DNA of 64,000 nucleotides from the sequence record OR067838.1. One strand, 5' to 3'. Under the pieces are notes generated by a model that had not been told where the DNA came from, searched no databases, and saw only the letters and a program-made list of their open reading frames with translations. How positions within the stretch are numbered: position 1 is the stretch's first letter; each line of letters opens with the position of its first letter. The translations under genes and the position numbers were made by a program. Below, in pieces: positions 9,435 to 39,079 of this stretch. This DNA comes from Escherichia phage KKP 3954.

Positions 9435-10254
9435 TCAAAGACTATTTTCAAAGTTTTCTAGGGCGATCCTTTTTTCTTCCTCTGTCGGCTGATAATCAGG
9501 AAAAGCATCAACACACAACAACGGCGGGATCTCTTCATACTCTTCCTCTTCCGTTGTCTCCTCGTCTTCCTCCTGGGCTATGGCTGCAATTTTGGCTAAT
9601 TTTCTCTCCGCTTGAATCAGTTTACCATCAAATACGTTTTTTGCCATGTTGTAAGCGGTCCAGGTGATGCGCTTACTTTCTAGTGCTTCATCAAGCGCCG
9701 CTATCTTGCTGGGGTATTCATCCAGGACACGAAAAGCCGGATCAACTTTGTATACAAGGGATTATCTTTCGCACCGTCGCTCGCATCTTCCGCACTGGAT
9801 AAATCAGCGTTACCATTTGCCAGCCAACCAGGGCGCACATAACGCGCTTTTACGTTGCCGTTACTACGTGCTAATCTGTTACCTATTTGCTCCCCGCTAT
9901 AGCCCGTGGATTCATCGACAAGATAATCAGGAATGATGCGCGGATCATCTGCTTCATGTTTTACCCAAGACTGGATCACATATTCGCGGCCCATATTAAC
10001 CACCTTTTTTTCAACAATCGGCATACTTTAAAAAGACTTGCTGAATCCTTGCAAGGGTAGAAAGATGTACGATAGTCACGTACGCCAACCTTGCGGATCT
10101 CGATGTTCTCGCATGTTGTTTGATCAAAAATATTTATTTCATCACGCCCCCTTATATAAACATAATGGGGATGTATTAACGCATACTTTGCTAATCTGTA
10201 AAAAGCGTTATCCTTGAACGCGATCACGTGACCTTTTAATTTGATGTAAAACAT
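9435..10254 (-). CDS. Hypothetical early protein with acidic C-terminal domain; one gene split into three track ORFs (9976..10254, 9701..10024, 9435..9647) by two apparent 1-nt deletions (T7 run 10005-10011; GTATAC 9750-9755)
   Basis: Only the first ORF has promoter, leader and SD (ATG 10254); the internal ATGs lack an SD; reading continues without stops after a -1 shift at each junction; C-terminus is Glu/Asp-rich. Confidence 0.5.
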
Positions 10255-10330
10255 TCTACCACCTTACAAATAGCGGGAACTATTCCCGCTTTATGTAACA
10301 TATTAACAAATTATTCGTTAATGTCAAGCC

Positions 10331-10603
10331 TTAAAGCAAAAACGCTACATCTTGCGCTTTTAGTGTAGTATCAACCATTTTTGGGCTTTTATAATCAACA
10401 AAACGCGCGGTTTTTTCAATAGCAAAACCGAGATAATCTTGTTTATTGAATTTACATTCTTTCTTAAATGTTTCCCGCGCCACGGTGATCGCTGCGTCCA
10501 GGGATAAACGCCCGTCAATGTTGATATTTGCGAAAGATCCGCCACCGCTCATAGGTTTACCAGTGGTGCCAGCTACGATCATTGTTGCGCTATATGATGC
10601 CAT
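10331..10603 (-). CDS. Hypothetical early protein
   Basis: ORF track 10331..10663 starts inside the leader hairpin; start moved to ATG 10603. Confidence 0.5.
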   Translation of the reverse strand: MASYSATMIVAGTTGKPMSGGGSFANINIDGRLSLDAAITVARETFKKECKFNKQDYLGFAIEKTARFVDYKSPKMVDTTLKAQDVAFLL

Positions 10604-10626
10604 GATTATAATCTCTCTTCTGTTGT

Positions 10627-10650
10627 GAGCGGCTGGACCATTCCGCCGCC
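10627..10650 (-). other. Conserved GC stem-loop in the 5-prime leader of early transcripts (example copy; family consensus GGCGGCAATGGTGCCGC with compensatory variants)
   Basis: More than 20 copies between promoter -10 and SD; stem changes are compensatory (e.g. CGGGAACTATTCCCG, CGGGAAACCATTTCCCG). Confidence 0.6.
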
Positions 10651-10661
10651 CTATGTGATAC

Positions 10662-10689
10662 ATCTTATCAGGTTGTTGGTTGTTGTCAA
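10662..10689 (-). promoter_or_regulatory. Early promoter of the conserved family (TTGACA, 16 nt spacer, TAAGAT)
   Basis: Hexamers on minus strand upstream of leader hairpin 10627-10650. Confidence 0.55.
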
Positions 10690-10695
10690 TACTTT

Positions 10696-10893
10696 TTATT
10701 CTATTCCTGCAATCTGATTAACGCGTTTGCATTTTGTAGCGTGCTGGTCTTCTGTAATTACTCCCATTTCTAACAGTGAATCAATGAAAGATAAAACCGT
10801 TTCATGATCATCCTGGGGATGACTGAACTCAGTAAAACCGTTTACTACCACGTTTATTTGTCCAGCTTTCGCCACAATGTGCAATGTTGCCAT
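10696..10893 (-). CDS. Hypothetical early protein (about 65 aa)
   Basis: ORF track 10696..10983; start moved to ATG 10893 after the leader hairpin; SD GGAG. Confidence 0.5.
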   Translation of the reverse strand: MATLHIVAKAGQINVVVNGFTEFSHPQDDHETVLSFIDSLLEMGVITEDQHATKCKRVNQIAGIE

Positions 10894-11080
10894 GATCTTA
10901 ACTCCAAATAGTGAGCGGCACCATTGCCGCGCTACGTGGTAAATATTATGCCGCCACCTGGCGAACGTCAACCACTTTTTCAATCTTTTTTATTTTCTTT
11001 TTGCTTGCTATATATAAAGGAAAGGGCTATCATCTTTCTACCGCGCCAACCAGGGCGCACAACAAAGAAAGGGCGACACC

Positions 11081-11347
11081 ATGACAACTACTACATTACA
11101 CCTTATGCACTCATTGGGCTGGCAAGGCGGCACGGTGCACCAGGTAGCAAGCGCAACAGGCTTAAAGGTTGAAACCGTTCTCAACCTGGGCGATCATAAA
11201 GTGGAAGAGATAGAACATTTTGATCCGTTCGCTGATGGTTATTTATGGGCTTGCAGTGGCGGCGGGGAAAGCAAGATCCCGCCAGCGGCGCGGGGCGATA
11301 TGCATTTTTGGTTAGGTGTCCTTTCCTGGCAAGAAAACAAAAAATAA
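11081..11347 (+). CDS. Hypothetical protein in a GC-rich island (atypical composition, possible moron)
   Basis: ORF track; only plus-strand gene in the first 18 kb; local GC clearly above the genome background. Confidence 0.45.
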   Translation: MTTTTLHLMHSLGWQGGTVHQVASATGLKVETVLNLGDHKVEEIEHFDPFADGYLWACSGGGESKIPPAARGDMHFWLGVLSWQENKK

Positions 11348-11349
11348 TC

Positions 11350-11378
11350 TTGACAAGCCCAGGGATCGGGCTTATACT
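11350..11378 (+). promoter_or_regulatory. Near-consensus sigma70 promoter (TTGACA, 17 nt spacer, TATACT) followed by a GC-rich structured segment of about 110 nt
   Basis: Hexamers seen directly; same GGG(A)CTTATACT -10 context recurs at 46759-46787. Confidence 0.5.
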
Positions 11379-11719
11379 GTTTTACATACAGAAGAGGAAG
11401 CGCCACCCCACGGCGTAAAGGCGGGGCTAACATACCAGGGCGCTGGTTGGAAGGTTGATCGCCGGTAGGCTGGGCGCTATATATTTGTAAAGAAATGTAA
11501 AGATAAAATAATCGCTTGCTTTCCTGGCTGGATCTGTTATTCTTATTACATGGCGAGGGGATACGGGAACGCGAGACAAACACCGCCCCTGCGCGTCATT
11601 CTCTAAATGAGAATGATTATCATTTACCTTATTGAATAAGAATCAATCTCATTTATAAACTTAAATGCGAATCATTATCATTTGCATTTCCATATGAGAA
11701 CTCTTCTCATTCTCACCTG

Positions 11720-11960
11720 CATAAATTTTTGTAAACTTTAAATTTTGCTTTTGTATTTTCATTTTTGTAAAAGCAAAAAAACTTTAAATACTGTGGGCGC
11801 GCAAAATTTTTAAAATTTTCCTTGACTTTTGAGTTTTGTTTTGTATCTAACATTTTAAGATAATTTTCCTAAACTTTAAATTTTGGTTTTCAACTTTCAC
11901 TTTTGTAAATTCTTAAAAAGTTTAAATAATTTGAGGAATTTTTGAGATAACAGGTAGTGG
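11720..11960. repeat. AT-rich region with two imperfect direct repeats of about 65 bp (each with AAACTTTAAATTTTG and TTTTGTAAA) and a TTTGAGATAAC direct repeat
   Basis: Repeats read directly in the sequence; no ORFs; lies between the two minus-strand gene clusters. Confidence 0.45.
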
Positions 11961-12060
11961 TAATTTGAGATAACCTTTAATCTTGTTGGTAAACCTTCAG
12001 GAACCCACCTAGATCGAATCCTAGAAAGGTCAACTGAAAAAGACAAGTGTTTGTATAGGA

Positions 12061-12096
12061 CAAAATAATAGGCTCTCTACGGTGCTGTAGGAGCCT
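12061..12096 (-). terminator. Rho-independent terminator downstream of the NADAR gene
   Basis: Hairpin GGCTCTCTAC..GTAGGAGCC followed by T-rich tract on minus strand. Confidence 0.5.
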
Positions 12097-12151
12097 TATT
12101 TCTGTGCTACAAAGTGGCACCTTTGTTCTAAAAATGAAAAAAGTTAAAATA

Positions 12152-12694
12152 TCACAAATATCGTCTTTGCGGTATTTTGTCTGGGAAAAGTATTTCGATC
12201 AGTTTATTATGATATTTGCCTAAAAGATTCTGCCCTTTCCAAGTGGCAGGGTTGAGCACCCCTGGTTCATACATCCCCATTCCAATTCCGTAAACCTTAT
12301 CGTAGGGGCTTGCTTCAACAAACGTTTTGTATTGGTAAAGGTGCAAGTCTGCATACAAATCTGGATTCTGTATATATTTCAAGCATAAACCTCGCATAAC
12401 AATACGCTCACGGTTCTCTTCCCACACGTTGTTATCAAAATCCGACACTGCCCTACCCATACGTTTGTAATAAGCTTGTTTCCTCTCGTTGTCACGTATA
12501 GTCGAGTGATCAAGGATAGCTGCTGCAATCGCATGATCCTTGAACAGCAAAGCCTTACGCCACATCATGTATTGCTCAACACAACAGAAAGTCTCATTGT
12601 AACCTGGTTCGGTTTCTGTAAAGGGTGCAATATACCAATTACTAAAAACATCTTTATGTGAAAAGAAGAATACATATTCGTCAGTTATTCTCAT
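12152..12694 (-). CDS. NADAR-domain (YbiA-like, DUF1768) protein; candidate ADP-ribose-processing enzyme
   Basis: 180 aa; FFF..FSNW..PF, EQ..M..KA.LF and NP.L motifs typical of the YbiA/NADAR fold. Confidence 0.6.
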   Translation of the reverse strand: MRITDEYVFFFSHKDVFSNWYIAPFTETEPGYNETFCCVEQYMMWRKALLFKDHAIAAAILDHSTIRDNERKQAYYKRMGRAVSDFDNNVWEENRERIVMRGLCLKYIQNPDLYADLHLYQYKTFVEASPYDKVYGIGMGMYEPGVLNPATWKGQNLLGKYHNKLIEILFPDKIPQRRYL

Positions 12695-12870
12695 TTTTTC
12701 ATACCTTCTAAGACTTTAGCTTGCCCGTCTTGAAAAGCTTTCATCAGAACTATCTTAAGATTGACTTCCAAACGTTCTTCATCCTCTTTATAACAATCCA
12801 ACACTGCTTTAAGTTCATCATAGTGGTTCAGAATAGGTTTAAAGATTTCATGATCTGCTAAACGTGCCAT
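12691..12870 (-). CDS. Hypothetical protein (about 59 aa)
   Basis: ORF track 12691..12906; start moved to ATG 12870 with SD AAGGAG. Confidence 0.5.
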   Translation of the reverse strand: MARLADHEIFKPILNHYDELKAVLDCYKEDEERLEVNLKIVLMKAFQDGQAKVLEGMKK

Positions 12871-12883
12871 AGTTTCTCCTTTG

Positions 12884-13249
12884 TTAATCCATCCACCAGT
12901 AGCCATAAACTGCGTCTGCGTCGATGAGTTTGTGTTTGTTGTTCCGCATGTAGTCTAAGATAAGTAGACGTTTATTGTATCTAGAGAGATTATGACCCTC
13001 TTTTCCGCCATAGTCAAAATATTTTGCAAGATCTTTACACTCAAACAAAATCAGTTCGGGAGTTTCTTCACACTGGTCTGTCTGGTACACTTGACGAATG
13101 ATCATGTATACATCGTCGTCTTCCGCTAAATGCTCTACTGGTCCACATCCAGCAGGAACAAATTCATAGTCCCATCTGATCAGATGTTTCTCTACTGCTT
13201 CAAAGAAGTCCATTCTTTCGTTGCGCATAATTTGAACGTCAACTAACAT
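12884..13249 (-). CDS. Hypothetical protein
   Basis: ORF track; ATG 13249 with SD AGGAGGA; contains an in-frame GTATAC at 13106-13111 with no break. Confidence 0.55.
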   Translation of the reverse strand: MLVDVQIMRNERMDFFEAVEKHLIRWDYEFVPAGCGPVEHLAEDDDVYMIIRQVYQTDQCEETPELILFECKDLAKYFDYGGKEGHNLSRYNKRLLILDYMRNNKHKLIDADAVYGYWWMD

Positions 13250-14234
13250 GTTTCCTCCTGTAATGTTCCACCATAAAGTTTATAAATGTTTTGTATTGAG
13301 GCCATGCAAGATAACTCTACTGTTTCTGTGTAGCCATCTGGCATAGAATATTTGCTCACTGCTTCCGTGTGAAGGACACGCTTACAACGCTTTTCTGCAT
13401 CTTTGCATTGCTTCACAGTAGGGAAGTGCCACACTTGGCTCTGTTTCATAGTAAACACATTATGACTATTTTGTTCTTTGATACGGCGATCACTACTATT
13501 GGCAATACCAAACTTCAAAGCACAGAGAAGATTTTGTTCATCGTAGATATAGTTGATGTATGCCTGTTGTTGTGTATGCCCTTTACACTGCGGACAACCA
13601 CGCCCCTTATGTAATAAGTGGTCAGCATTCCCTATTTGCTCCCCGTGATCCTTACATCCATATTTAAACTCTCCTGTTGAGGAAGGTTTACTAATCCACT
13701 CCATCCAGATATATCCTTTACTTTCTAAACCTTTTCTCACCTTGTAAGTGATCTGATCTTTTGTGTAACGGTAAACTCTAGTATACAACGACAAGGGATA
13801 ATCCCTTTTTTAAGATCGTTCCCTGCAATGTAAAATTTACCATCACACACTCCTGCTTGTACGTATTCATCATGAGAACAAACAGGACATTCAACCATCC
13901 AGAGAATATGACTCCCTTTACGTTTGCCTGTATTGGTGAAAATAGTACCAGGTTTAAACTTTCCTGTGTTAATGAAATCTTTTATGTGCTGATCGTCTGT
14001 CTTACCTCCTTTCCCAACTCCTTTCCCAATTGCACAGACAGGACAACCAGCACGACCAGTTTTAAAGTTTTTAAATGTTGTAGTGTTCCATTCATGAGCA
14101 TACTGACAACGATTGATCATTTTCGTGTGTTGTCCTGTAAACGGCTCAACAATTCCAATAATCTCAATCCCTTTAGCAGCAGCAATAGGTTGACACTCTT
14201 CAATATATTGTTCAATACTCTTCTTTACTGGCAT
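13243..14234 (-). CDS. Zn-finger plus T5orf172 (MUG113-like) domain protein; split into track ORFs 13737..14243 and 13243..13794 by an apparent 1-nt deletion at GTATAC 13781-13786
   Basis: N-terminal CxxC pairs; C-terminal LKFGIANSSDRRIKEQN resembles the T5orf172 core; the two ORFs join after a -1 shift inside the overlap. Confidence 0.45.
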
Positions 14235-14311
14235 ATCTAACAATTATCTCCCTATTAAACTGAAATCAATATAACAAAACCCGCCGAAGCGGGTTTAATA
14301 AGGGAGCCTTA

Positions 14312-15453
14312 TTAGAACACGCTACCCAGTGTGGTGGAACGTTGTGTTACAGGCTCCAGCACCACTCGCAGAGTGTTACCTGGTGTAGTGCTCGTCACCA
14401 GAATCTTACCACCTTCAATCAGATCACAAGTTAGACCATCACCCGTTGCACATAGATCAATATGTGGATCACCATCTTCGTCCAGGATAACATAACTGTT
14501 GGTTTCCATTGCTTCCACTTCATCATCTTTCAAACTTTGTAGATAGATGTTCAGGGAACAAGCGCCCGACAAAAACTTAGTAGGGGTGAAGTCGTGCCAG
14601 TTATTGATCCAATTCACCTTCAAGGTTTTGCCATTAGCTACGATAGAAGCCACATTCCATTTAGCATCGTTCCCTAAAGAAATACCCATCATTTCAAGAC
14701 ATTCTTTAAAAGTCATTTTTGGATAGAAATTCAATTCTTCTACAATGCCTTGAATAACATCGAAAGACAACTCTGTGCTAACATCCCATAAACGTTGGAA
14801 GTTATCTACGTGCTTTTTATTTACCAAGTTCTTATCCAAGTAATCTAACATAGTTTCACTAGACAGTTTATCGTAATTGAAACTGTAGTAGATACGACTA
14901 GGACGGTTTACAAAATATTCCGAGATATAGCCACTATTTTTAGTGAGGATGTAAAGTTTATTTCCACTTCCTGTTCCATCCAACAAGGTCAACAGTGCTT
15001 CCTGATCTTCTTTCTTAGCGTATACACTTTATCAAACTCGTCAAATAAAACAACAGCACGATCTGTAATTTTACTCATAAATTCTAAGAATCCAGCATCT
15101 GTGTAAGGCTGTGTCACCAAAATGGTTGGAATACCTAAACCTTCTGTGGACATTAGGGACATGCTAATCAGTTTAGCTAACATCGTCTTACCACTGCCCT
15201 TTGTCCCTGTCAGTAACACCCCAGTATTTTTACCTTCTTTACTACGACGAGCAAATGTTTTAATAACATGTGCGGCGCGGTCTTTAGTTTCCCCATAAAG
15301 AGTGTTCGGAAGAGAGAAACTTTCGCCACGCACTAAAGAGTAGTTACCGTGCGGATCGCAGTTGACAACCCAAACTCCAGCAGGAAGTTTATTAGCTTCA
15401 ACACCATATTCCTTATTTACAACAGCCACATCTCCAAAAATAGTGTATTTCAT
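14312..15453 (-). CDS. P-loop NTPase (AAA-type ATPase); split into track ORFs 14989..15507 and 14312..14992 by an apparent 1-nt deletion at GTATAC 15020-15025
   Basis: Walker A GTKGSGKT and Walker B VVLFDEFD; start at ATG 15453 with SD AAGGAG; downstream ORF begins on TTG without an SD and continues in the -1 frame. Confidence 0.55.
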
Positions 15454-15478
15454 TAAAACGTTTCTCCTTTTAAAATAA

Positions 15479-15811
15479 TTACTGTAAACTTTGCAGTTTT
15501 TTCTCACTCTTAATATTCTTGATTAATAAATACTCTCCTCCAGGTGCATCTTTGTATTGTTTAATAGCTACTATTTCATTTTTGCAAGTAGCTATAATCG
15601 AATAAAAAGGACGTTCCGTGTTATCTTCTTTTCCTGTATATGCCTCAACATCTTTGCACTCTTCTAGAACACCATTCCCAGGTGTATAGTAAAACTTGTT
15701 GCCTGTGATCACAACATCTTTACCAATATCCGTTTTAACTGCTACAAATTTTTGAGCGTAAGTGGTGAAGCTTACGGTAGCCAGCAATGTGGCTAAGATT
15801 AATTTTTTCAT
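15479..15811 (-). CDS. Small secreted protein (signal peptide)
   Basis: ORF track 15479..15841; ATG 15811; N-terminus MKKLILATLLATVSFTTYA. Confidence 0.55.
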   Translation of the reverse strand: MKKLILATLLATVSFTTYAQKFVAVKTDIGKDVVITGNKFYYTPGNGVLEECKDVEAYTGKEDNTERPFYSIIATCKNEIVAIKQYKDAPGGEYLLIKNIKSEKKLQSLQ

Positions 15812-15822
15812 AAACTTCCCTC

Positions 15823-15987
15823 CTATTCCCACAACATACAAATCGCAGCGACAAACATATTAGCAATAGCCGCACCAAGAACTATAAACATCGCCAATTC
15901 AGAACAATATTCACCAACCAAAGGGGATACTATTGCACAAAGTAGTCCCAATGTCAAACACAAGTTGATGATGAAGTTTAAAATCAT
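15823..15987 (-). CDS. Hydrophobic small membrane protein (54 aa)
   Basis: Not in ORF track; ATG 15987; two hydrophobic segments; stop abuts the SD of the next gene. Confidence 0.4.
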   Translation of the reverse strand: MILNFIINLCLTLGLLCAIVSPLVGEYCSELAMFIVLGAAIANMFVAAICMLWE

Positions 15988-15996
15988 ATTCTCTCC

Positions 15997-16161
15997 TTAC
16001 AACCAACCCTTTGCCTGATAGCCTTTAGAAAATCCATCTTCCCATTCTTCGAATTCCTTTTTGTGTGTCATTGGACAATATGGATTTACTTTATTAAACA
16101 TACCAAACTTGAACCCTGCGGTATACCCTTTCTTAAAAGCTATTGATTCTAAAGAGATCAT
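15997..16161 (-). CDS. Hypothetical protein (about 54 aa)
   Basis: ORF track 15997..16188; start moved to ATG 16161 with SD AGGAG. Confidence 0.5.
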   Translation of the reverse strand: MISLESIAFKKGYTAGFKFGMFNKVNPYCPMTHKKEFEEWEDGFSKGYQAKGWL

Positions 16162-16174
16162 ATTCTTTCTCCTC

Positions 16175-16426
16175 TTAGAACTCGACAATGATTTTGTCTA
16201 AGTGTTCTGCTTCAACTTGGGATAATGTTAACACCTGCACCAAACCTCTGTCAATACCAATTTTAATGACTTGCAAATAATCACCAAAAAGATCTGATAA
16301 AGAAATAGCATGTTCCGTAACTACAATAACTTCATTACCTTTAGTGTATTCTTTCCACACCCGACCACATTTATAAATGTAATCTTTTTGATCTTCAGTA
16401 ATCATTTTAGGTTTGATACTTAACAT
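16175..16426 (-). CDS. Hypothetical protein
   Basis: ORF track; ATG 16426 overlapping upstream stop (TAATG). Confidence 0.55.
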   Translation of the reverse strand: MLSIKPKMITEDQKDYIYKCGRVWKEYTKGNEVIVVTEHAISLSDLFGDYLQVIKIGIDRGLVQVLTLSQVEAEHLDKIIVEF

Positions 16427-16764
16427 TACATACTCCCGTATTCTGGTTCAATATTATGTTTACGACAAATGGTATCCCAACGTTCATTACCAAAACTTCT
16501 TCCATGTAGAGCGTTAAATGCGAAATGCTCTGCCAACCACAATACTACATCATCAGGATCTGTGTCAAGAGGAATTCTAAACTCTCGATCATAACGCATA
16601 CGCAGAATAAAATCCTTATCATCTTCAAGGAGATACATGTGACTTTTAGCCCGTGATGCCAAATCAAAGAAAGGAGGCTCGTCTTTCCAAACGTGCCGCT
16701 CAACTTCAACACCATGATCAACTACCAGAGTAGCGATCACCTCTCTCATTTCTTTACTAAACAT
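16426..16764 (-). CDS. Hypothetical protein
   Basis: ORF track 16426..16782; start moved to ATG 16764 with SD GGAGGT. Confidence 0.55.
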   Translation of the reverse strand: MFSKEMREVIATLVVDHGVEVERHVWKDEPPFFDLASRAKSHMYLLEDDKDFILRMRYDREFRIPLDTDPDDVVLWLAEHFAFNALHGRSFGNERWDTICRKHNIEPEYGSM

Positions 16765-16774
16765 ATTACCTCCA

Positions 16775-16951
16775 TTAACCAATTAGTTCAACCGATTTGC
16801 AAATGTAGATCCAAACTGGAGTGAGCATAAGAGCTATACCGAATGCACAATTCCACTTAATTCCCATTTCCTCTATTAGAGACATGATTAAGCCAACAGC
16901 ACTAATAATCAGATAGATCCCTAAGAAAGCCATTGTGAAGAATTCAGACAT
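16775..16951 (-). CDS. Small membrane protein (two predicted TM segments)
   Basis: ORF track 16775..16963; ATG 16951 with SD GGAG. Confidence 0.5.
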   Translation of the reverse strand: MSEFFTMAFLGIYLIISAVGLIMSLIEEMGIKWNCAFGIALMLTPVWIYICKSVELIG

Positions 16952-16953
16952 AT

Positions 16954-17310
16954 TTAGCTCCAAAGATTATCAAAATAACTAGCGAATAAAAGACGGCCTT
17001 CTAACCGTGCCTTCCTTTGATCTTCAGCATACACGATTTCTGGATTACCACTATCAATAAAAGCATTCTCCATCTTTTCTAAAATATTTAACCACTCTCT
17101 TCTACCTGTCTCCTCTTCTTCATCTGTATACGGCGCACTTCGATTTGGATACAAAACACGCATCAGTTTAGTGGGGATCATGACAAACGTGCTATTGTTT
17201 GCCTTCTCACGGAAGGCTTTAATTCCTGCATAGATTACCTTCCCCAAAGCTGCATCCAAATCCATCAGGTCACTTTCTTCTATTTGAATTTCATCGTGTA
17301 TAATTTTCAT
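16954..17310 (-). CDS. Hypothetical protein
   Basis: ORF track; ATG overlapping upstream stop (ATGA). Confidence 0.55.
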   Translation of the reverse strand: MKIIHDEIQIEESDLMDLDAALGKVIYAGIKAFREKANNSTFVMIPTKLMRVLYPNRSAPYTDEEEETGRREWLNILEKMENAFIDSGNPEIVYAEDQRKARLEGRLLFASYFDNLWS

Positions 17311-17594
17311 CGTGCCTTCTCCCGATCTGCATCTAATTTCAACAAGAAAGCTGTATACTCTTCCGAACCTTGGTGTAAAAACATGTGATAAGAGCTTACC
17401 AGTTTCTTCGTTGTCGTATAACGTTCCATTTCCCCAACAACACCTCCACCTAGTGTGTAGAGCACAATACCTTCAACTCCAACATGGGTTACTACTTCAA
17501 CCAAATCTGTGTTATCCCAATAGTAGTTAGGTGACACAATAAGATCTCCCACTGCCAGTTTAATGTTTGCTACTTCGTCTTGTGAATAGTACAT
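17307..17594 (-). CDS. Hypothetical protein
   Basis: ORF track; ATG 17594 with SD GAGAGGAG. Confidence 0.55.
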   Translation of the reverse strand: MYYSQDEVANIKLAVGDLIVSPNYYWDNTDLVEVVTHVGVEGIVLYTLGGGVVGEMERYTTTKKLVSSYHMFLHQGSEEYTAFLLKLDADREKAR

Positions 17595-30303: not shown

Positions 30304-30304
30304 T

Positions 30305-30961: not shown

Positions 30962-30990
30962 TCAAACTCAAATTTTTGCAAATAAATTTG

Positions 30991-31782
30991 ATGACACTGG
31001 AAACTGCTACTTTTGATATCAAAGATTATTCAAAATTGAAATTTGGTAGTAACCAAGCTGCGCGTCGTATGGGTAAAGAATTGGCACTTCAGTTTTTTGC
31101 TCAAGTGGCAATGAAACATATTGGGGAACAATTTGTTATCATTCCTTCTCCTTATAACCATGTGCATAATGCTGCAACAATGATGACAGATCATTTTATT
31201 AATTACTTTAATATGTTGCAAGCACAATATGATCAAGGTCGTTCAGCAGAACTGGATATTATTCATCGTAAAGTTAGCTATATCAACGATTATGGTTTCT
31301 TGGATAAAGCTAGTCGTAAGAAACTTATTGATGGGGATACATTCTACTGCAACAAAGAATTCTGGGGTGATAAGAAGCTTGTGTTCATTGATGATGTAAA
31401 TATCACTGGAACTCATGAAGACAAACTAATTGAGATTCTTGATGAAAATCAAGTTAAAAATGATGTTTACTTCTTGTATTTTGCAAAATATGAAGGTAAT
31501 CAAGCAGATACCGAAGCTAAGCTGAATTTTAACTATATTAATACACCAGAAGCGTTTGTTAAAATGATTAATGAAGAACGTGATGCACAGTGTCTTGTTC
31601 GTCCTATTAAGTATCTTATGGGCCAAAATCATGAAGACTTCAAAATCATTCTTAGCCAATTGCCACACTACTATGTGGAACAACTTTTCTTCGGCTGTTT
31701 AGCTGAAGGCTACAATCGAATTGCAAAGTATGCTGAAAACTTTGAGTTCTTGGATCGCTACACAAAACAACATATTCTGTAA
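30991..31782 (+). CDS. Phosphoribosyltransferase (PRTase type I)-like protein
   Basis: PRPP-binding motif KKLVFIDDVNITGTHEDKL; start ATG 30991 or TTG 30976. Confidence 0.5.
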   Translation: MTLETATFDIKDYSKLKFGSNQAARRMGKELALQFFAQVAMKHIGEQFVIIPSPYNHVHNAATMMTDHFINYFNMLQAQYDQGRSAELDIIHRKVSYINDYGFLDKASRKKLIDGDTFYCNKEFWGDKKLVFIDDVNITGTHEDKLIEILDENQVKNDVYFLYFAKYEGNQADTEAKLNFNYINTPEAFVKMINEERDAQCLVRPIKYLMGQNHEDFKIILSQLPHYYVEQLFFGCLAEGYNRIAKYAENFEFLDRYTKQHIL

Positions 31783-31795
31783 TAAGGAGCTAAAA

Positions 31796-32269
31796 ATGCT
31801 TAAAATGAAAACAGGTAATCTTATTGATGCCGCTAAAGCAGGTGAAGTAACTGTTATCGCTCATTGTTGCAATTGTATGTGTAATATGGGGGCAGGTATT
31901 GCCCCACAAATCAAACGAGCATTTCCTTACGCATATGCAGCAGACTTAGACACAATGGCTGGTGATCAAAGTAAACTAGGTTGTTTTAGTTTAGGGGTGC
32001 CAGACGAACAATCAGACCCTTTGGTATATAATCTATACGGGCAATACCGTTACGGATACAATGCTAAAGGTCGTCAGTTGGACTATGATGCACTTTACGA
32101 TGCACTAATAGCTATGGCTAATGATTTGCTTCTCCGTGACCAAAAATGTAAGATCGGCTTACCTATGATTGGCGCTGGACATGCTGGAGGTAATTGGGCT
32201 ATCATCCAAGTGATGATTGAAGAAACTTTAGTAAAAACAGGTCACGATGTGACTATTTATAAACTTTAA
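31796..32269 (+). CDS. Macro-domain protein (ADP-ribose binding/processing)
   Basis: VIAHCCNCMCNMGAGIA and GLPMIGAGHAGGNW blocks fit the macro-domain Gly-rich loops; SD AAGGAG. Confidence 0.55.
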   Translation: MLKMKTGNLIDAAKAGEVTVIAHCCNCMCNMGAGIAPQIKRAFPYAYAADLDTMAGDQSKLGCFSLGVPDEQSDPLVYNLYGQYRYGYNAKGRQLDYDALYDALIAMANDLLLRDQKCKIGLPMIGAGHAGGNWAIIQVMIEETLVKTGHDVTIYKL

Positions 32270-32281
32270 GAGGAGATTAGT

Positions 32282-32503
32282 ATGGGTGTTTTTGCAGGTA
32301 TTGTTGCAGTGGTAAGCTTTTTTGTTATTGCTTTTATGCTTAGTTTGATTCCAGCTTGGTTATTGTTGCTGGCTTACAACTATGTTGCTGAAGTTATGGG
32401 TCATGCAGATATCACTGTCCCAGTAACCTTCTGGACCGTGGTTTGTGTTTCGTTTATTCTGGCTGTATTACGAGGAATCTTTTCCTCTCATTCAACAAAA
32501 TAA
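32282..32503 (+). CDS. Small membrane protein (two TM helices)
   Basis: ORF track; hydrophobic throughout. Confidence 0.5.
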   Translation: MGVFAGIVAVVSFFVIAFMLSLIPAWLLLLAYNYVAEVMGHADITVPVTFWTVVCVSFILAVLRGIFSSHSTK

Positions 32504-32506
32504 GTG

Positions 32507-32534
32507 TTGACATAGTTCTTAAAAAGAGTAAGAT
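32507..32534 (+). promoter_or_regulatory. Early-family promoter (TTGACA, 16 nt spacer, TAAGAT) with GC stem-loop leader (32546-32564) upstream of the TerC gene
   Basis: Same promoter-leader architecture as the left-end early genes, here on the plus strand. Confidence 0.5.
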
Positions 32535-32584
32535 ATATCACATGAAGCGGGGAATAGTTCCCCGCAAAGAGAAAGGAGAAAATA

Positions 32585-33559
32585 ATGCAACTTGGTTTCC
32601 CAATCATTGATGTAGTTGTTTTAGTTGGTATTTTAGCATTGTCTATTGGTATCGATTTCTTTGGTCATAAAGAGAATAAAGAAATTGGAATTAAATCTGC
32701 TTTGCTTTGGTCTGTTTTTTGGATTGCTTTAGCTTTAGGATATTACGCATTCATTTGGGTAGAACATGGTAAAGAGTTTGCCGCGCTTTTCCTAAGTGGC
32801 TATGTGTTGGAAAAGAGTCTTTCTGTAGATAACCTAATGGTGTTCATGGCAATTTTTGCAAGCTTTGGAATTAAGAGCACACATCTCCAACATAAGATTT
32901 TACTTTGGGGGATTGCAGGAGCCATTGTCTTCCGAGGTATTTTTGTTGCAGCAGGCACCGCTTTGTTTAACCTTCATTGGTCGGTCCAAGTGTTGTTCGG
33001 TTTGATTGTAGCTTGGTCTGCCGTGGCTATCATCAAAGGTGGTGATGAAGAAGAGGATATCGATTACTCTAAACATTGGGCTGTTCGTTTAGTAGGTAAA
33101 GTTCTGCCTGTGCACAATGCACTGGATGGTGAAAAGTTCATCACCATTAAGAATGGTATTAAATATGCAACTCCTGCTCTTCTTTGTGTGTTTGTTATTG
33201 AGCTTACAGATATTGTCTTCTCTTTTGATTCAGTTCCGGCTGTGATCGGTGTGACACAAGAACCTGTGCTAGTTTATTCTGCAATGCTGATGGCTGTTCT
33301 TGGTTTACGTGCACTTTTCTTTGTGTTAAGTGTAGCTGTGAAATATCTGGTTCACTTAGAGAAAGCTGTTGCTGTGGTTCTGGTGTTTGTTGGTGCTAAA
33401 CTTATGTATCACCCGTTCGGTGAAACACTTCATGCCAAGTGGTCATTCCTCCCGCATGATATTTCCCCTAACGTAAGTCTGATGATTGTTCTAGGCACAT
33501 TAGCTCTTGGTGTTATTGCAAGCTTTATCTTCCCTGAAAAAGAAGAAGCTGCTGTTTAA
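32585..33559 (+). CDS. terC: TerC-family integral membrane protein
   Basis: 324 aa, multi-TM; conserved LSVDNLMVFMAIF and ELTDIVFSFDSVPAV blocks. Confidence 0.7.
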   Translation: MQLGFPIIDVVVLVGILALSIGIDFFGHKENKEIGIKSALLWSVFWIALALGYYAFIWVEHGKEFAALFLSGYVLEKSLSVDNLMVFMAIFASFGIKSTHLQHKILLWGIAGAIVFRGIFVAAGTALFNLHWSVQVLFGLIVAWSAVAIIKGGDEEEDIDYSKHWAVRLVGKVLPVHNALDGEKFITIKNGIKYATPALLCVFVIELTDIVFSFDSVPAVIGVTQEPVLVYSAMLMAVLGLRALFFVLSVAVKYLVHLEKAVAVVLVFVGAKLMYHPFGETLHAKWSFLPHDISPNVSLMIVLGTLALGVIASFIFPEKEEAAV

Positions 33560-33565
33560 TAGATG

Positions 33566-33590
33566 AGCCTCCTTCGGGAGGCTATTTTTA
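33566..33590 (+). terminator. Rho-independent terminator after the TerC gene
   Basis: AGCCTCCTTCGGGAGGCT hairpin plus T-run. Confidence 0.65.
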
Positions 33591-33602
33591 TAGGAGAGAC
33601 TT

Positions 33603-33953
33603 ATGAGCAATTTTGATGAAATTCAAAAACTTGTTTGGGATTTACCTGGTGATGTTGATTACGTTTCAGATTATCTTTCAAAAGTTTACCTTGGGGTAAG
33701 CGTTATGATTGTGACCAAAGATCCAATTAACCTTCCTCCTAATGTAGTAGCTTGTTGTGGAAGTGGTTCAGGAGAGGTAGAACCTGTATCTCGTTGGGAA
33801 TTAACCAAGGCTGTTTCAAAACGAAACGGCGAAGTTTTGAATATTGATATCGAACAAATCTGGACTTCTCCAGCCGCCAAGTGGAATGATCCTAATGGTT
33901 GGGATTTGTTCTTCTGGGATAATGAAACTGATGATGAGGTATTTTTAAAATGA
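33603..33953 (+). CDS. Hypothetical protein
   Basis: ORF track; SD GGAGAGA. Confidence 0.55.
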   Translation: MSNFDEIQKLVWDLPGDVDYVSDYLSKVYLGVSVMIVTKDPINLPPNVVACCGSGSGEVEPVSRWELTKAVSKRNGEVLNIDIEQIWTSPAAKWNDPNGWDLFFWDNETDDEVFLK

Positions 33954-34195
33954 AATACTTGTTGGTTGTGTTTGAAAATATTTGTTTTGCAATAGGGTTG
34001 TTTGTTGTAATTTTTGTATTGACAAGCGTAATCAACGGCAGTAAAGTGAGTTTATACCGAGATGGAGAGCAGCTTTATTGCTTCTCTGGAGATTTCAAAC
34101 ACAGATGTATTAATAGTCAAAACGAGGAAAGCAAATATGAAAAAACTAGCCCTGATTTTAATTGGTTGTATCTTTTTAACAGCTTGCGAGGATGA
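33950..34195 (+). CDS. Small membrane protein (single TM); 3-prime end overlaps the lipoprotein gene in another frame
   Basis: ORF track; the true end is uncertain. Confidence 0.35.
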   Translation: MKYLLVVFENICFAIGLFVVIFVLTSVINGSKVSLYRDGEQLYCFSGDFKHRCINSQNEESKYEKTSPDFNWLYLFNSLRG

Positions 34196-34574
34196 AACAA
34201 ATCCTACACAATATCAACAACCTCCTCAACAATACGCTCAACAAGGATCTGACGGAGATACAACTATTATCAACAATGGTGGCGGTTCTAGTAGTAGCGG
34301 TGTTGGTGAGTTTGCTACAGGTATGTTGTTAGGACATATGATGAGCGGTGGTAGTAATCGTAGCGGCGGGGATTATAACGATAACAGAACGATTATTAAT
34401 AAACATTATAACACACCTAAACCGAAAACTAATTTTTATGGTAAGCCTAAACAAGAGATAAAAACTTATGAAAAGCCAAGACAAACTTTTAAAACAAATA
34501 GCAGCTATACAACTCGTAAATCTTACAATAGCCCTTTAAGTAAAAAGAGTTCATCTCGTAGCAAGCGACGTTAA
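34137..34574 (+). CDS. Lipoprotein (signal peptide with LTAC lipobox; Gly/Ser/Asn-rich; basic C-terminus)
   Basis: ATG 34137 with SD GAGGAAAG; N-terminus MKKLALILIGCIFLTAC. Confidence 0.55.
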   Translation: MKKLALILIGCIFLTACEDETNPTQYQQPPQQYAQQGSDGDTTIINNGGGSSSSGVGEFATGMLLGHMMSGGSNRSGGDYNDNRTIINKHYNTPKPKTNFYGKPKQEIKTYEKPRQTFKTNSSYTTRKSYNSPLSKKSSSRSKRR

Positions 34575-34588
34575 TAAGGAGAAAAATA

Positions 34589-35182
34589 ATGACAATTTCT
34601 ATTCGTACTTCCATCGTAGGTGTTAAAAGGTTGCCTAATGCTTTGCAAATCACACGTGCTTTGAGGGATACGTTCTCTGCTGTGGATGAGCATAAGATGC
34701 TTGATAATCTGTCAAATTGGCCCTATTTTCATTATTTTAAAAATGAAGACGACGAGTTTATAGATGCTGTTTCTTATGGTTATGATTTCGGTAAGGAGGT
34801 TTCTCCTGAAGAATTTGTAGCTACGGTATTCCCAAATGGTTTCCCTACTCGCAGTAAACGTAAAAAAGGACCAAAAAACAAGAAACGTGCTACTAATAAA
34901 GCTACCATTTTCTTTACTGATGGGACACAGTATACGATTAAAGATTTTGAAGAAGTATCTTATACAGCAGGTGGGAATCTTTCTTTCTACACCATCAAAA
35001 AACAAAACTCTACGTTCAGCCATGTTTCTAACATGATTGAAATGTTAGTAGAAGATATTGAAAGCGTGGCTGTGTTAGGTATGCATAAAAGCTTTTTAAT
35101 TACAAATATTTCAGATTTCAGTGCACGTTTATCTGGCCCTGATTTTGAAGCCACGACCACGCATTTCACTTTTAAGGTGTAA
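34589..35182 (+). CDS. Hypothetical protein
   Basis: ORF track; SD AAGGAG; in-frame GTATAC at 34930 with no break. Confidence 0.55.
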   Translation: MTISIRTSIVGVKRLPNALQITRALRDTFSAVDEHKMLDNLSNWPYFHYFKNEDDEFIDAVSYGYDFGKEVSPEEFVATVFPNGFPTRSKRKKGPKNKKRATNKATIFFTDGTQYTIKDFEEVSYTAGGNLSFYTIKKQNSTFSHVSNMIEMLVEDIESVAVLGMHKSFLITNISDFSARLSGPDFEATTTHFTFKV

Positions 35183-35185
35183 GTT

Positions 35186-35776
35186 ATGTATACCGAGAGA
35201 GACTTGCAACTCTTGTGGTGGGAAGTGATGCAGGAAATAAAAGAAGATTTTCCTGTTTACTACAACATGTTACGTGAAGCAGGATATAAAGCTTGTGTTA
35301 GAAACAAAGTGAATAACTCTTTCGGTTGGTGCAACTACCGAGATAAAATTGTTGTTGTAAATTGGCACTTGCATAAGAACTCTACAAGAGATATGATCGT
35401 GGATACAATGAAGCACGAAATTGCTCATGCTATTGATGGTTGTATGGGTAAGTTTAGTCGGCACGGTGCTCATTGGCAAAAACTGGCAGCAGAATTAGGG
35501 GCTAATCCTAAAGCCACTTCCAAAGAGCCGTTGAACCACGAATATAAATATGTTCTTGTTCTGGTAGATAGGTTTGCGACAAGATGTGTTAGAGGTTATA
35601 ATCGTAAACCTAATCGCATGTACCCAGGTAAGCAACCTAATATGTGGTTGAAATCAGATAAAGAAGGGACCGAAGGAAAATTATGGTTGTATAAATGGGA
35701 CGATTGGGTTAAAGTAGCTAAAGAATACGGTGTTTCACCATATATAAGAGATGCAGAAGAGGAGAATGAAGAATGA
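35186..35776 (+). CDS. SprT-like zinc metalloprotease-domain protein
   Basis: HEIAHAI (HExxH) followed by HGAHW, as in SprT-like domains. Confidence 0.55.
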   Translation: MYTERDLQLLWWEVMQEIKEDFPVYYNMLREAGYKACVRNKVNNSFGWCNYRDKIVVVNWHLHKNSTRDMIVDTMKHEIAHAIDGCMGKFSRHGAHWQKLAAELGANPKATSKEPLNHEYKYVLVLVDRFATRCVRGYNRKPNRMYPGKQPNMWLKSDKEGTEGKLWLYKWDDWVKVAKEYGVSPYIRDAEEENEE

Positions 35777-36885
35777 CAAGTCCATTTTTAAAAGCAGCTA
35801 CTGGTGGTCAGAAGAAGCCTGAAATGAGCGTATTTGCTGCAACAACAGATGCAAGTAAATCTGTATTCGCTCCAAGCGTGTTAGATGCCAGTCCTGTTTA
35901 TGCACCAGCGGCACCGCAAGAAGTTCCAGTTTTGCCTTCTATGACCCGACAAGAGATCGAAGAGATTGGGGCAGAGGCAGGAACAACCTTGCGTTCCTTG
36001 AATGCCGAGGTATTAAAACATCAACGTAGTAATCAAGGAGATCAGATGAGTGAACGACTCACAGCTTTGATTAAACAGGCAAAACAACTTGATCCAAACT
36101 CTATTAAACAAAGCAAAGGTATTACTAAACTCATTAAAAAAGTTATGGGTATGAAAGAAGACCTGTTTGGGGAGTTTGATAATGTTAATAACCGTATTGA
36201 AGAGTTGGTAAAGAACCTTCAAATGGATATTCGCAAAGAAGAAGATTCCTTGGTATATCTTGAAAAGCTACATCAAGCTATTGGACAATATGCCGCAAGT
36301 TTGAACCGAGATATGCAGCTTCTAACAGCAACCTACGAAAAAGAAGAACAAGCTTTGGCTGCTCTTCCAGAAGATGCGGTAGAACAGCGACAAGTGATCC
36401 GAGATACTTTGGATCTTCTGGAGATTCGTATTGCGGATTTAAAAGCATTGCGCCTACTGTGTGTCCAAATGGGACCACGTGTGCAAGGTATGCAAAAAGT
36501 TTCTGCAAGCTTAATGCGATCTGCGCGTAACATAGTAAATAATGTTATTCCTGCTTACTCTGCTAACTTCTCAATGTATATTGAGAGCTTGCGTCAAATG
36601 AAAGCCGCAGAGACGCAGAATAACGTTCTTGATGAATTTAACCTGGCAATTAAACTGGGTAGCGATCTTGCCACACAGAATCAGATCGAAGCAGCAGCAC
36701 TGGCTAACCGTCAAGTGTTGGATATTGAAACTCTGCGTCACGATCAGGAAAACTTGGTTAAGATGTTGGAAGAAACTAACCGCATCAATACGGAAGCCCG
36801 TGCTGCTCGTGTTGATTATATTAATGAAGTTCAATCTCTGGAAGACGGGATGGTAGCTGCTGTGAAACGAGGGCTTGGTAAATGA
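35773..36885 (+). CDS. TelA-like (toxic anion resistance family) protein
   Basis: 370 aa, long predicted coiled coils; size and Ter-cluster context fit TelA; assignment from context and composition rather than a sharp motif. Confidence 0.45.
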   Translation: MTSPFLKAATGGQKKPEMSVFAATTDASKSVFAPSVLDASPVYAPAAPQEVPVLPSMTRQEIEEIGAEAGTTLRSLNAEVLKHQRSNQGDQMSERLTALIKQAKQLDPNSIKQSKGITKLIKKVMGMKEDLFGEFDNVNNRIEELVKNLQMDIRKEEDSLVYLEKLHQAIGQYAASLNRDMQLLTATYEKEEQALAALPEDAVEQRQVIRDTLDLLEIRIADLKALRLLCVQMGPRVQGMQKVSASLMRSARNIVNNVIPAYSANFSMYIESLRQMKAAETQNNVLDEFNLAIKLGSDLATQNQIEAAALANRQVLDIETLRHDQENLVKMLEETNRINTEARAARVDYINEVQSLEDGMVAAVKRGLGK

Positions 36886-37077
36886 GAATCCGTATCTATA
36901 TAATTGATGAAGACATTGGTGTCCGTTATGATGACGAAAAACGATTCGCACCGATGGGAGGCATATACCCCCAAGTGTTCTAGCAGTTTGTCGTGATTGT
37001 TATATTTATGAAGGTTGTCGTAACTTCCGTAAATTCGAACTCCTTGCAGATATTGACTTCAATGAGGAGGAGGAGTA
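36882..37077 (+). CDS. Small Zn-ribbon-like protein, apparently interrupted by a 1-nt deletion in a C5 run (36968-36972)
   Basis: ATGA coupling at both ends; 33-codon ORF stops at 36981 while the -1 frame encodes CRDCYIYEGC..EEEE up to a stop abutting the next ATG. Confidence 0.35.
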
Positions 37078-37251
37078 ATGAAAATATTACGAGTGAATAT
37101 TGAAACTGCTTGGTGTGGATGTAATGAGGTTGTGGATATCGAAATTGAAGATGATATGTCTCAAGAGGATATAGAAGATCTTGCGCACGAAACCTTTCAG
37201 GACTATTGTAATTACGGGTTCCATATTTTAGAGGAGGAAGAGGATGTTTAA
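37078..37251 (+). CDS. Small acidic Cys-containing protein (57 aa)
   Basis: Not in ORF track; SD GAGGAGGAGGAG then ATG 37078. Confidence 0.4.
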   Translation: MKILRVNIETAWCGCNEVVDIEIEDDMSQEDIEDLAHETFQDYCNYGFHILEEEEDV

Positions 37252-37447
37252 CTACGATAACGATCCTAATATTATCCAGTTAACCCGACAAGAACTGATC
37301 ACAATCATTGAAGATGCTTTTATTGATGGCTGGAATACACAAGATAATGACTGGGGTGGACCTGAAGCTTTTCTAGAACATCATAAAGCGTATGGAGAAT
37401 TTTGCGAAACCACTGTAGCTCTTGATAATCTGAAGGAGGGTTTGTAA
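37244..37447 (+). CDS. Hypothetical protein
   Basis: ORF track. Confidence 0.5.
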   Translation: MFNYDNDPNIIQLTRQELITIIEDAFIDGWNTQDNDWGGPEAFLEHHKAYGEFCETTVALDNLKEGL

Positions 37448-38010
37448 TGGGTTGTTTTAGTTTTTTGTGTAAGGAATCGGGCAAAGCTGCCCTTTCTACT
37501 TCTTTCGACGGATCACCTTGCTATCTCTTTCTTTTGAAGGATGGTGTTGTTATTGAAGAGATGTATGGCAACTATGATAGTTATGGTTGTGTTTTCTCTG
37601 GAAAGGAGGATGAAAATGGCGTTCGTGAGCGGTTCGAATGGGCTATGGATTGGGGTAAGGTTTGTGATTTAATGCATTCCTCGAATCCAAGGGACGGTAT
37701 CGCTATGGTGCTGGAAGAGTATTTTACAGGCGAGATCCCTACAGAACAATCTGACGGAGATCCTAATCAAGGTTGGGGTGATGGGGAAGAAGATCCAGAT
37801 TGTTTTTTCAGCACAGAAAAGAATAAGTTTAAACGTGTTGACAACCCTTATCACAAAGTGCATAATACTCTCATTGAAACAGAAGATAACAAGATGGAAA
37901 TTGAAGAAGATGATCCTCTTGTAACACTTCCTATAAGCGAGTTGCAAAAGATCACTAAAGAAGCTTACGATTTGGGCTTCAAAATTGGTAAAGGAGGTAT
38001 ACGTGTTTAG
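37447..38010 (+). CDS. Hypothetical protein (acidic)
   Basis: ORF track. Confidence 0.55.
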   Translation: MGCFSFLCKESGKAALSTSFDGSPCYLFLLKDGVVIEEMYGNYDSYGCVFSGKEDENGVRERFEWAMDWGKVCDLMHSSNPRDGIAMVLEEYFTGEIPTEQSDGDPNQGWGDGEEDPDCFFSTEKNKFKRVDNPYHKVHNTLIETEDNKMEIEEDDPLVTLPISELQKITKEAYDLGFKIGKGGIRV

Positions 38011-38281
38011 ATTCAATATTCAAGAAGAAAAGTGCCAGGATTTACCTATTGCTTTCGAAGATCTTGGCATAGGGGCCACATTCATGTATTATGATGCCTA
38101 TGAAGACGCAGGGTTGGATACCTACCGTAACTTGGTGTTCATTAAAAATTCCACAAACAGTGCGATCTGTATTAATGGATCACTAGCACAACGAGGCTAT
38201 ACTCATTGCATCCCACCAGATACAAATATGGTGGAAGTAGATTTAGAAGTTACCAATATTACACTTAAGAAGGAGAAATAA
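38003..38281 (+). CDS. Small protein, paralog of 39305..39574
   Basis: GTG 38003 with SD AAAGGAGG; shared blocks with its paralog (DL.IG.TF.Y, GLD, EV.L.VT.ITLK). Confidence 0.5.
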   Translation: MFRFNIQEEKCQDLPIAFEDLGIGATFMYYDAYEDAGLDTYRNLVFIKNSTNSAICINGSLAQRGYTHCIPPDTNMVEVDLEVTNITLKKEK

Positions 38282-38282
38282 T

Positions 38283-39079
38283 ATGTCCGAGAAAATCAGC
38301 CTGAAAAAACGTCAAGAAAACCTTGCTTTCTCTCTGAAAAAGAATAAGAACCTGAACGAAGGTAAGATTGTTCTTCGTGTAGCATGTGCTCTAGATATTT
38401 CTGGTAGTATGCATGGTCTATATACTCGTGGGGTAGTGAGTGATTTTGTAGGTAAACTGCTTCCTTTTGGTATGCTGTTCGACGATAATGAACAAATTGA
38501 CATGTGGGCCTTCAATACGAGTTCTCAAGAGCTTACTCCAGCAACAGCAGACGTTTACGATGACTACGTTGGTAAATGTATGCGTAATGTTCGTATCGGA
38601 GGTGGAACAAATTACGCCCCTGTAATGGCAGATATCTACGATGAGTATTTTGGCACTGTTACCAAATATGTTACCACTAAACAAGTGGTATACAAGAGGA
38701 GGCTCCAAAGAAAGGCTTCTTTAATCGTCTGCTTGGTAAAACTGAAACAGTATCGGTAGAGCGTGAAAAAGTTGTAGCTGTATCTGAACCAGGTGCTGAT
38801 GTTACTCCTGGCGTTGTATTCTTCCAGACAGACGGTGAGAATGGTGATCCTAGTGCTGTTCGTCGTCTTATTGAAGAGAATAAGAATAAGCCTATCTATT
38901 GGTTCATGGTTGGCGTTGGTAATGAGAAGTTCAGCTTCCTGAAAGAACTGGCAAATGCTTATGACAATGTTGGTTTTATTGGCATTAAAGATTTAGACTT
39001 GACAGATTCAGAGCTTTATGACAAACTCTTATCTGAAGAGTTCGGAGAGTGGGTTGTTAAAGTAGGTGCTAAAAAATGA
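38283..39079 (+). CDS. von Willebrand factor A (vWA) domain protein, TerY-like; split by an apparent 1-nt deletion at GTATAC 38688-38693
   Basis: MIDAS motif DISGSM in the N-terminal part (track ORF 38283..38759); vWA C-terminal half (VVFFQTDGENGD...WFMVGVGNEKF) continues in the -1 frame to a stop at 39077-39079. Confidence 0.6.

Follow-up and report, generated by a model that had tools for sequence, protein, structure and literature searches.

Five genes in a 64,000-nucleotide (nt) stretch of Escherichia phage KKP 3954 (sequence record OR067838.1; this whole stretch is called the window below) are each interrupted at a copy of the hexamer GTATAC. We conclude, with a probability of roughly 85%, that the interruptions are GTAC-specific sequencing or consensus errors, implying a modification of the phage DNA at GTAC; as biology, the gene breaks are not a real feature. 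An earlier note, made from the sequence alone, had proposed that motif-specific sequencing or assembly indels (insertions or deletions) betray a modified motif, and this is the explanation that our analysis supports, although the lesion form, the motif and the extent that it specified were all wrong. By sequence similarity the window (G+C content 39.4%) can be assigned to a phAPEC8-like coliphage of the genus Phapecoctavirus, being 94–98% identical to many genomes of these myoviruses (Stephanstirmvirinae), for example vB_Ec-G1, ukendt, ESCO13 and DIJ07P1. Searches of the phage collection with 9000–21000 and 39001–64000 returned nothing at 99% identity or higher, and there was no match among E. 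coli genomes or, for an exact 33-mer, in IMG/VR. The form of each lesion was judged against about 25 such genomes and contigs, from which the error-prone BI-EHEC was set apart, and further relatives were added from metagenomes, Logan and NCBI to check the five break sites.

Gene breaks and the affected motif

At every one of the five sites two overlapping open frames on the gene strand span GTATAC, as first described, and the common frame polarity of the breaks is borne out. The hexamer occurs 26 times in the window (the earlier count was about 25) against 11.9 expected from shuffles, the 26 including those at 9750, 13781, 15020, 19947 and 38688; since all 26 together cover just 0.24% of the window's length, the association with the breaks lies far beyond chance. 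The breaks had been read as 1-nt deletions, to be mended by restoring one T or another base, a model ruled out by alignment to relatives that have GTAC: compared with every relative examined other than BI-EHEC, the window instead carries two extra nucleotides (GTAC to GTATAC), and the correct repair is deletion of TA. In frame, +2 and −1 are equivalent. Alignment of homologues, suggested as a means of finding the missing base, did not confirm such a locus but placed GTAC with an inserted TA at the break sites.

The comparison can be followed site by site. At 9750, where translated searches (tblastn) recover the gene in two pieces (frames −1 and −3), ten relatives read TTTGTACAA[AG] and BI-EHEC reads ATAC. 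The relatives first aligned at 13781 were too diverged to judge, and we used EF1-1 and tuntematon, which are 99% identical to the window in this gene, read CTAGTACAAC and carry a continuous 999-nt endonuclease coding sequence. Eleven relatives read GCGTACAC at 15020, where the frame evidence agrees with the split and the nanopore-only BI-EHEC also has GTATAC, and at least 13 read GTGGTACAAG at 38688, with the gene intact. The remaining locus (19935–19952) is a double site: relatives have GGTACTGGTACAC and the window GGTATTAATGGTATACAC, with GTACTG turned into GTATTAATG at 19935–19941. Deleting TA yields stop-to-stop open frames of 196 codons at 9750, 332 at 13781, 402 at 15020 and 264 at 38688, lengths that match those of relatives, in which the five loci are single continuous open reading frames (ORFs) of 185/188, 332, 379, 65/78 and 264 amino acids (aa), respectively. 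GTAC was likewise found in the added relatives, in five at 9750, one at 13781, six at 15020, five at 19947 and seven at 38688; a protein look-up with the frameshifted vWA fragment of the window returned no match on record.

The changes are concentrated at GTAC itself. At 34 sites, GTAC does not vary across three or more of five clean relatives; the window departs from it at 20 of these (binomial p ~1e-20), always to give ATAC (14), GTAT (5) or GTATAC (1). The corresponding rate over all 4-mers is 3.6%, and the 4-mer ranking second reaches 13%. Because their gaps could be placed in more than one way, the remaining +TA sites do not enter this count. On this alignment, some 60% of conserved GTAC sites would be miscalled, mostly as transitions. 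No second error motif, whether Dam, Dcm or any other 4-, 5- or 6-mer, is enriched in the window, GATC (6/228 changed) and CCWGG (3/68) lying at background level. In all, at least 19 GTAC sites bear a G>A or C>T substitution, all 19 of those tabulated (Table 1) being of these two kinds, and the +TA insertion makes up just seven of more than 30 altered GTAC sites, the others being transitions or other indels. Intact GTAC numbers 37 in the window and 39 in BI-EHEC, three clean relatives having 62–69 over 66–67 kb; in about 49 kb, G1 has 59 and ukendt 65.

The affected motif, and presumably the modified one, is GTAC. GTATAC, which the earlier note had put in that role, is rejected as one error product of GTAC: the enrichment sits at GTAC, and 14 of the 26 hexamers are conserved in relatives and unaltered. 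Seven others are +TA products, two arose from GTGTAC and two from non-GTAC sequence, and the remaining one, at 63127, possibly derives from GTACAC. The intact copies that had been offered for comparison, such as those in nrdG (29312) and the tailspike gene (58640), are ordinary conserved hexamers and irrelevant to the question. In every clean relative GTAC is also 3- to 4-fold under-represented (59–69 observed, 149–210 expected from a Markov model), an avoidance that is family-wide and independent of the artefact; CTAG is about 2-fold under-represented.

Real as sites, the five breaks are not the full set that they were taken for, as further GTAC-linked indels lie at 3432, 5711, 6861, 19935 and 60828. 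The effect of the TA insertions at 3432 and 6861 is limited to C-termini, all six relatives compared reading TTGGTACCCT at the latter; in the tailspike gene, by contrast, the window has GAGAATACC at 60826–60833 where its closest relative has GAGTACC. Seven ORFs that relatives conserve are frameshifted, a structural gene among them.

A second assembly and a nanopore-only relative

An exact-protein look-up led us to four Logan contigs of run SRR24296944 that match the window at 99.89–100% and have some of its particular GTAC miscalls; two proteins bearing such miscalls, of 180 aa and 674 aa, occur nowhere else. Judged by these sequences, the contigs evidently come from the same phage. Over 24.7 kb the two assemblies differ at 11 loci, all of them GTAC-derived: GTAC calls are unstable between two assemblies of one phage. 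In the Logan contig L040 the 1017-aa tailspike is intact, its site reading GGAATACC, in frame, against GGAGAATACC in the window. True pseudogenes are rejected on this ground, the frameshift at 60828 being missing from the contig of the same phage (the five reported sites lie outside the coverage of the recovered contigs), and real mutation or deliberate lesions, which the earlier note had left standing, are disfavoured by an independent assembly whose disagreements with the window are confined to GTAC sites.

The ends of the contigs point the same way. Two alleles among the reads at one base break a de Bruijn graph there, and three of the eight contig ends sit precisely at an outer base of GTAC (between G and TAC at 20843/4, between GTA and C at 13087/8, and between CTGT and ATAC at 61158/9), where such disagreement would put them. 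A further three ends lie at A/T homopolymer runs.

Coding effects and polarity set the GTAC-linked substitutions apart from ordinary divergence. They divide 13:6 into non-synonymous and synonymous, against 146:349 for the other window-specific coding substitutions (n = 495; Fisher p = 7e-4) and 40:138 for the other G>A/C>T changes (p = 8e-5); the GTAC-linked changes are not filtered by selection. Their polarity falls into three blocks, with ATAC at 6.6–9.6 kb, GTAT at 11.7–20.6 kb and ATAC again at 27–62 kb, a pattern of three or fewer runs among 14 + 5 sites that has p ~0.002 by a hand count of arrangements. It is independent of gene orientation, and for the most part the miscalls in the Logan contigs show this block pattern too. 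We infer that the locally dominant read strand decides the consensus.

Away from GTAC, window-specific indels occur at 10005 (+T in a T7 run), 11437 (−1 or −2 in a G run), 33585 (+T in a T5 run), 15502–15503 (+TC, GA on the gene strand, beside an A6 run, altering the C-terminus of a 118-aa gene upstream of the ATPase gene) and 36968 (−1 beside a C5 run, breaking a 65-aa ORF). These look like homopolymer-type long-read errors, and those at 10005, 11437, 33585 and 36968, in or beside short runs, are consistent with a long-read origin of the window.

Only one of the approximately 25 relatives carries the window's GTAC signature. This genome, BI-EHEC (OL505078.1), has ATAC, GATAC, AATAC or GTATAC at 20 of 39 conserved GTAC sites, frameshifting 1-nt insertions included, and was sequenced by Oxford Nanopore only, with Guppy 4.0.11 HAC (high accuracy), Flye and Medaka (PMC8686590). 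Its authors report 352 ORFs (PMC8686590), against some 275–296 annotated features in relatives, a count probably inflated by the GTAC miscalls. Thirteen sites are altered in both BI-EHEC and the window, 11 in the window only, seven in BI-EHEC only and eight in neither (Fisher p = 0.75), and at some shared sites the products differ; because the altered sites are independent and the products differ, common descent of the changes is ruled out. The errors are specific to GTAC and recur independently in a nanopore-only relative. LuPh7, another nanopore-sequenced Phapecoctavirus, was amplified by polymerase chain reaction (PCR) before sequencing and is therefore uninformative.

Table 1. GTAC-linked changes in the window and matching contigs of the same phage
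Feature	Position	Strand	Observation
Acidic early protein, 185/188 aa	9750..9755	-	GTATAC = GTAC + TA; gene split
Endonuclease (DUF723/CapR, T5orf172-like), 332 aa	13781..13786	-	GTATAC = GTAC + TA; gene split
AAA ATPase, 379 aa	15020..15025	-	GTATAC = GTAC + TA; gene split
Small ORF, 65/78 aa	19935..19952	+	two GTAC sites 6 nt apart; +3 and +TA, net +5; ORF split
vWA-TerF-like protein (PF10138), 264 aa	38688..38693	+	GTATAC = GTAC + TA; gene split
Tailspike / colanic-acid-degrading protein, 1017 aa	60826..60833	-	+2 insertion (60827-8); split into 905 + 106 aa
68-aa ORF	5711..5716	-	one extra A directly 5' of GTAC (AAC-A-AGTACG); ORF broken
Small ORF, C-terminus	3432..3437	-	GTAC + TA; last residues ..VERTA (stop) become ..VERIQHENRNHY (stop)
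ORF, C-terminus	6861..6866	-	GTAC + TA; ..GYQMVVTK (stop) becomes ..GYTKW (stop)
GTAC to ATAC substitutions	6641, 7783, 9537, 9632, 27207, 35725, 40410, 55172, 55604, 56596, 59615, 59636, 61159, 62049		sites invariant in clean relatives
GTAC to GTAT substitutions	11753, 12370, 17298, 19815, 20603		sites invariant in clean relatives
Logan contig L016	20844-30275		99.989% identity
Logan contig L018	11775-13087		100% identity
Logan contig L039	15605-19710		
Logan contig L040	51330-61158		

A proposed modification of GTAC and its alternatives

We propose that in the phage DNA the palindrome GTAC bears a modified base, which a nanopore-type long-read basecaller would misread. Most commonly the outer C would be called as T, giving GTAT from one strand and ATAC from the other; extra bases would sometimes be emitted (GTATAC, AGTAC, GAATAC), and the consensus step would retain many of these miscalls. 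Methylation-induced nanopore errors have been described as strand-specific purine/purine or pyrimidine/pyrimidine confusions (A/G, C/T) at motifs, among them those of Dam and Dcm and strain-specific ones; these errors vary between pipelines and vanish after PCR (Lohde et al. 2024, PMC11610573; Liu et al. 2024, 'Hammerhead', PMC11610603). The window's errors resemble them in being restricted to a motif and mainly G/A or C/T confusions and in being absent from short-read assemblies of relatives; GTAC calls also differ between the two assemblies of this phage. Strand dependence, observed in reads in the published cases, is suggested indirectly here by the consensus polarity and the contig ends. 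Two features are unlike the published errors: the motif GTAC is listed in neither paper, and where those errors are mostly substitutions, a notable share in the window are frameshifting short insertions (TA, A, AA, TAA).

Several further observations weigh against this explanation. A clean 2-nt duplication of TA is not the commonest methylation error reported, and it is the exact scar that cutting at G^TAC, fill-in and religation would leave. The nanopore origin of the window's reads is suggested indirectly, by the homopolymer indels and by the Logan contig ends at homopolymers. The recovered Logan contigs span none of the five +TA sites, so that we infer the absence of these insertions from the reads, and two of the eight contig ends (30275 and 51330) lie at neither GTAC nor a homopolymer. 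The literature searched contained no description of a modified GTAC in Phapecoctavirus, and the gene for the candidate methyltransferase considered next lies outside the window.

The window encodes no recognisable DNA methyltransferase, and the two genes so annotated in vB_Ec-G1 both fall outside its range; Olsen et al. noted methyltransferases in this phage cluster. One of the two, EcG1_002 at 1035–1718 of PQ433349, encodes a 227-aa protein with the C5-methyltransferase motifs FDGSG, PPC (with the catalytic Cys) and ENP, which matches PHROG 757 "DNA methyltransferase" and, weakly, the PDB sequence of M.HaeIII; it has 870 homologues, several of them named DNA cytosine methyltransferase by NCBI, and the family is widespread in phages. 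Its AlphaFold model (predicted local distance difference test score, pLDDT, 82.5) matches the catalytic domains of DNMT3A/B and M.HaeIII (E 1e-6 to 1e-5). The candidate resembles C5-cytosine methyltransferases such as M.HaeIII and DNMT3 in its motif I (FDGSG), its Pro-Cys motif (PPC), an ENV-like ENP and its predicted fold; unlike them it is just 227 aa long. The second, EcG1_019, is a 169-aa amino-methyltransferase with an NPPF motif. A Pfam search with the two annotated methyltransferases gave no match, the 227-aa protein falling below the PF00145 threshold.

That the miscalls fall at the outer C:G pair speaks for modification of C, or just as much of G, over modification of A; our preferred, unproven reading is therefore GTA-5-methylcytosine (GTA-m5C) made by this candidate compact C5-cytosine methyltransferase. 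Cleavage by the restriction enzyme RsaI is blocked where the C of GTAC is m5C. A phage-encoded source is favoured over a host-encoded one because two independent isolates show the signature. The full proposition, that Phapecoctaviruses modify their own DNA at GTAC, probably as GTA-m5C through the 227-aa DNMT3/M.HaeIII-like enzyme, and that this causes the errors in nanopore-only genomes, remains tentative, and we would put it slightly short of even odds. Such self-modification might also bear on the 3- to 4-fold depletion of GTAC in the genus.

The alternative that survives best, improbable as we consider it, is true hypermutation or heteroplasmy at GTAC, in which deamination (of m5C, or promoted by a methyltransferase) at GTA-m5C would generate GTAT and ATAC in a mixed phage population. 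The substitutions are indeed exactly C>T at the outer C, on either strand; relatives have the C5-methyltransferase-like gene and a family-wide depletion of GTAC; and the Logan contig ends at GTAC show both alleles to be abundant in the reads. Yet deamination leaves the indels unexplained, such a load is absent from all of the roughly 23 relatives known from short reads or metagenomes, and block-wise strand polarity is unexpected for deamination of a symmetric site; nor would a viable lineage tolerate a broken tailspike and a majority of non-synonymous changes. In clean relatives, moreover, GTAC is polymorphic at 38% of sites, within the range of 4-mers, and just six of 22 variants are ATAC or GTAT; polymorphism that is ordinary and not dominated by C>T leads us to reject natural deamination-driven decay of GTAC.

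Rather less probable still are restriction scars, left by a G^TAC cutter of the Csp6I/CviQI type (5'-TA overhang), acting in vivo or in vitro, followed by fill-in and blunt ligation, which would have destroyed the site and would mean that dispensable genes were truly knocked out. GTATAC is the exact product of such a fill-in, all seven +TA insertions being precise duplications of the central TA; the strong avoidance of GTAC in the family suggests GTAC-directed restriction pressure, and relatives encode a DNA ligase. The same process, however, would leave unexplained 19 or more G>A/C>T changes, the 1-nt and AA insertions and the +5 double site; with 37 GTAC sites left, no resistance would have been gained; and the tailspike would be inactivated, whereas the Logan assembly of this phage has the gene intact. 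The two assemblies also disagree about the changes, and the signature occurs in an unrelated nanopore-only record as well. Because GTAC additionally becomes ATAC or GTAT, or acquires other indels, and because the calls are unstable between assemblies, we treat the likeness to a G^TAC scar, or to a Hi-C junction of the same sequence, as coincidental.

A different library artefact, the absorption by the assembly of Hi-C/3C-type or restriction-library junctions, seems to us very improbable. A Csp6I/CviQI junction would read GTATAC, and one Logan contig begins with TAC while another ends with GTA; but GTAC is intact inside the Logan contigs, the third end (between CTGT and ATAC) is what a G/A ambiguity, rather than a cut, would produce, the GTAC transitions and the homopolymer contig ends go unexplained, and BI-EHEC was a plain nanopore library. 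Programmed frameshifting as meaningful recoding, or deliberately planted lesions, to which the common frame polarity of the five breaks could point, can be given practically no weight: the insertion occurs in no relative, where plain ORFs contain GTAC in frame, there is no slippery heptamer, the lesion keeps the same plus-strand form in genes on both strands, and public SRA-derived contigs of the same phage bear the same class of error.

GTAC miscalling in a modified genome, the explanation that we favour, changes how the record should be read. Taken at face value, it describes a phage whose ATPase, endonuclease, vWA and tailspike genes have become pseudogenes; more likely it is an intact phage with a flawed consensus, and the same consensus problem affects at least one other public record (BI-EHEC, OL505078). 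In practice, Phapecoctavirus genomes assembled from nanopore reads alone have to be polished with short-read or PCR-based data, and comparisons should mask GTAC sites. At little cost, the error pattern also points to a GTAC-specific DNA modification not described so far, and to a candidate enzyme for it, in a common, therapy-relevant genus of coliphages.

Other features of the window and its relatives

Around the vWA-TerF-like gene, 30976–40192 holds a Ter-type stress-response cluster (PRTase_3, TerC, SprT-like, TelA, vWA-TerF-like and TerD) that is kept in all relatives. Four adjacent genes at 41515–44659 (12056–15334 in the G1 record), annotated as glycosyltransferases in ESCO13, lie directly upstream of the primase/helicase and DNA polymerase genes, and dTDP-rhamnose pathway genes are also present in relatives. 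Olsen et al. speculated on DNA glycosylation in these phages; the window shows no genome-wide error pattern pointing to a global base modification.

Three genes have short, uninterrupted forms in the window and vary among relatives. In some the UvrD-type helicase has an intein-like insertion (876 aa, against 530 aa), in some NrdD is split by an I-HmuI/HNH-like ORF and in some the DNA polymerase gene is longer (1110–1189 aa, against 865 aa); these variants come from the relatives L023, L024, L027–L030, L042 and L045–L049. In one of these, L042 (logan:SRR19185074_123), genes are split (PRTase_3 into 126 + 150 aa and a 157-aa gene into 56 + 104 aa) with no GTAC-linked changes, so that its source of error probably differs from the window's. 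Finally, 30276–30830 is a mosaic segment that DIJ07P1 shares; from most other relatives it differs strongly, numerous indels compensating one another; its left edge (30275) coincides with the end of one Logan contig of the same phage.

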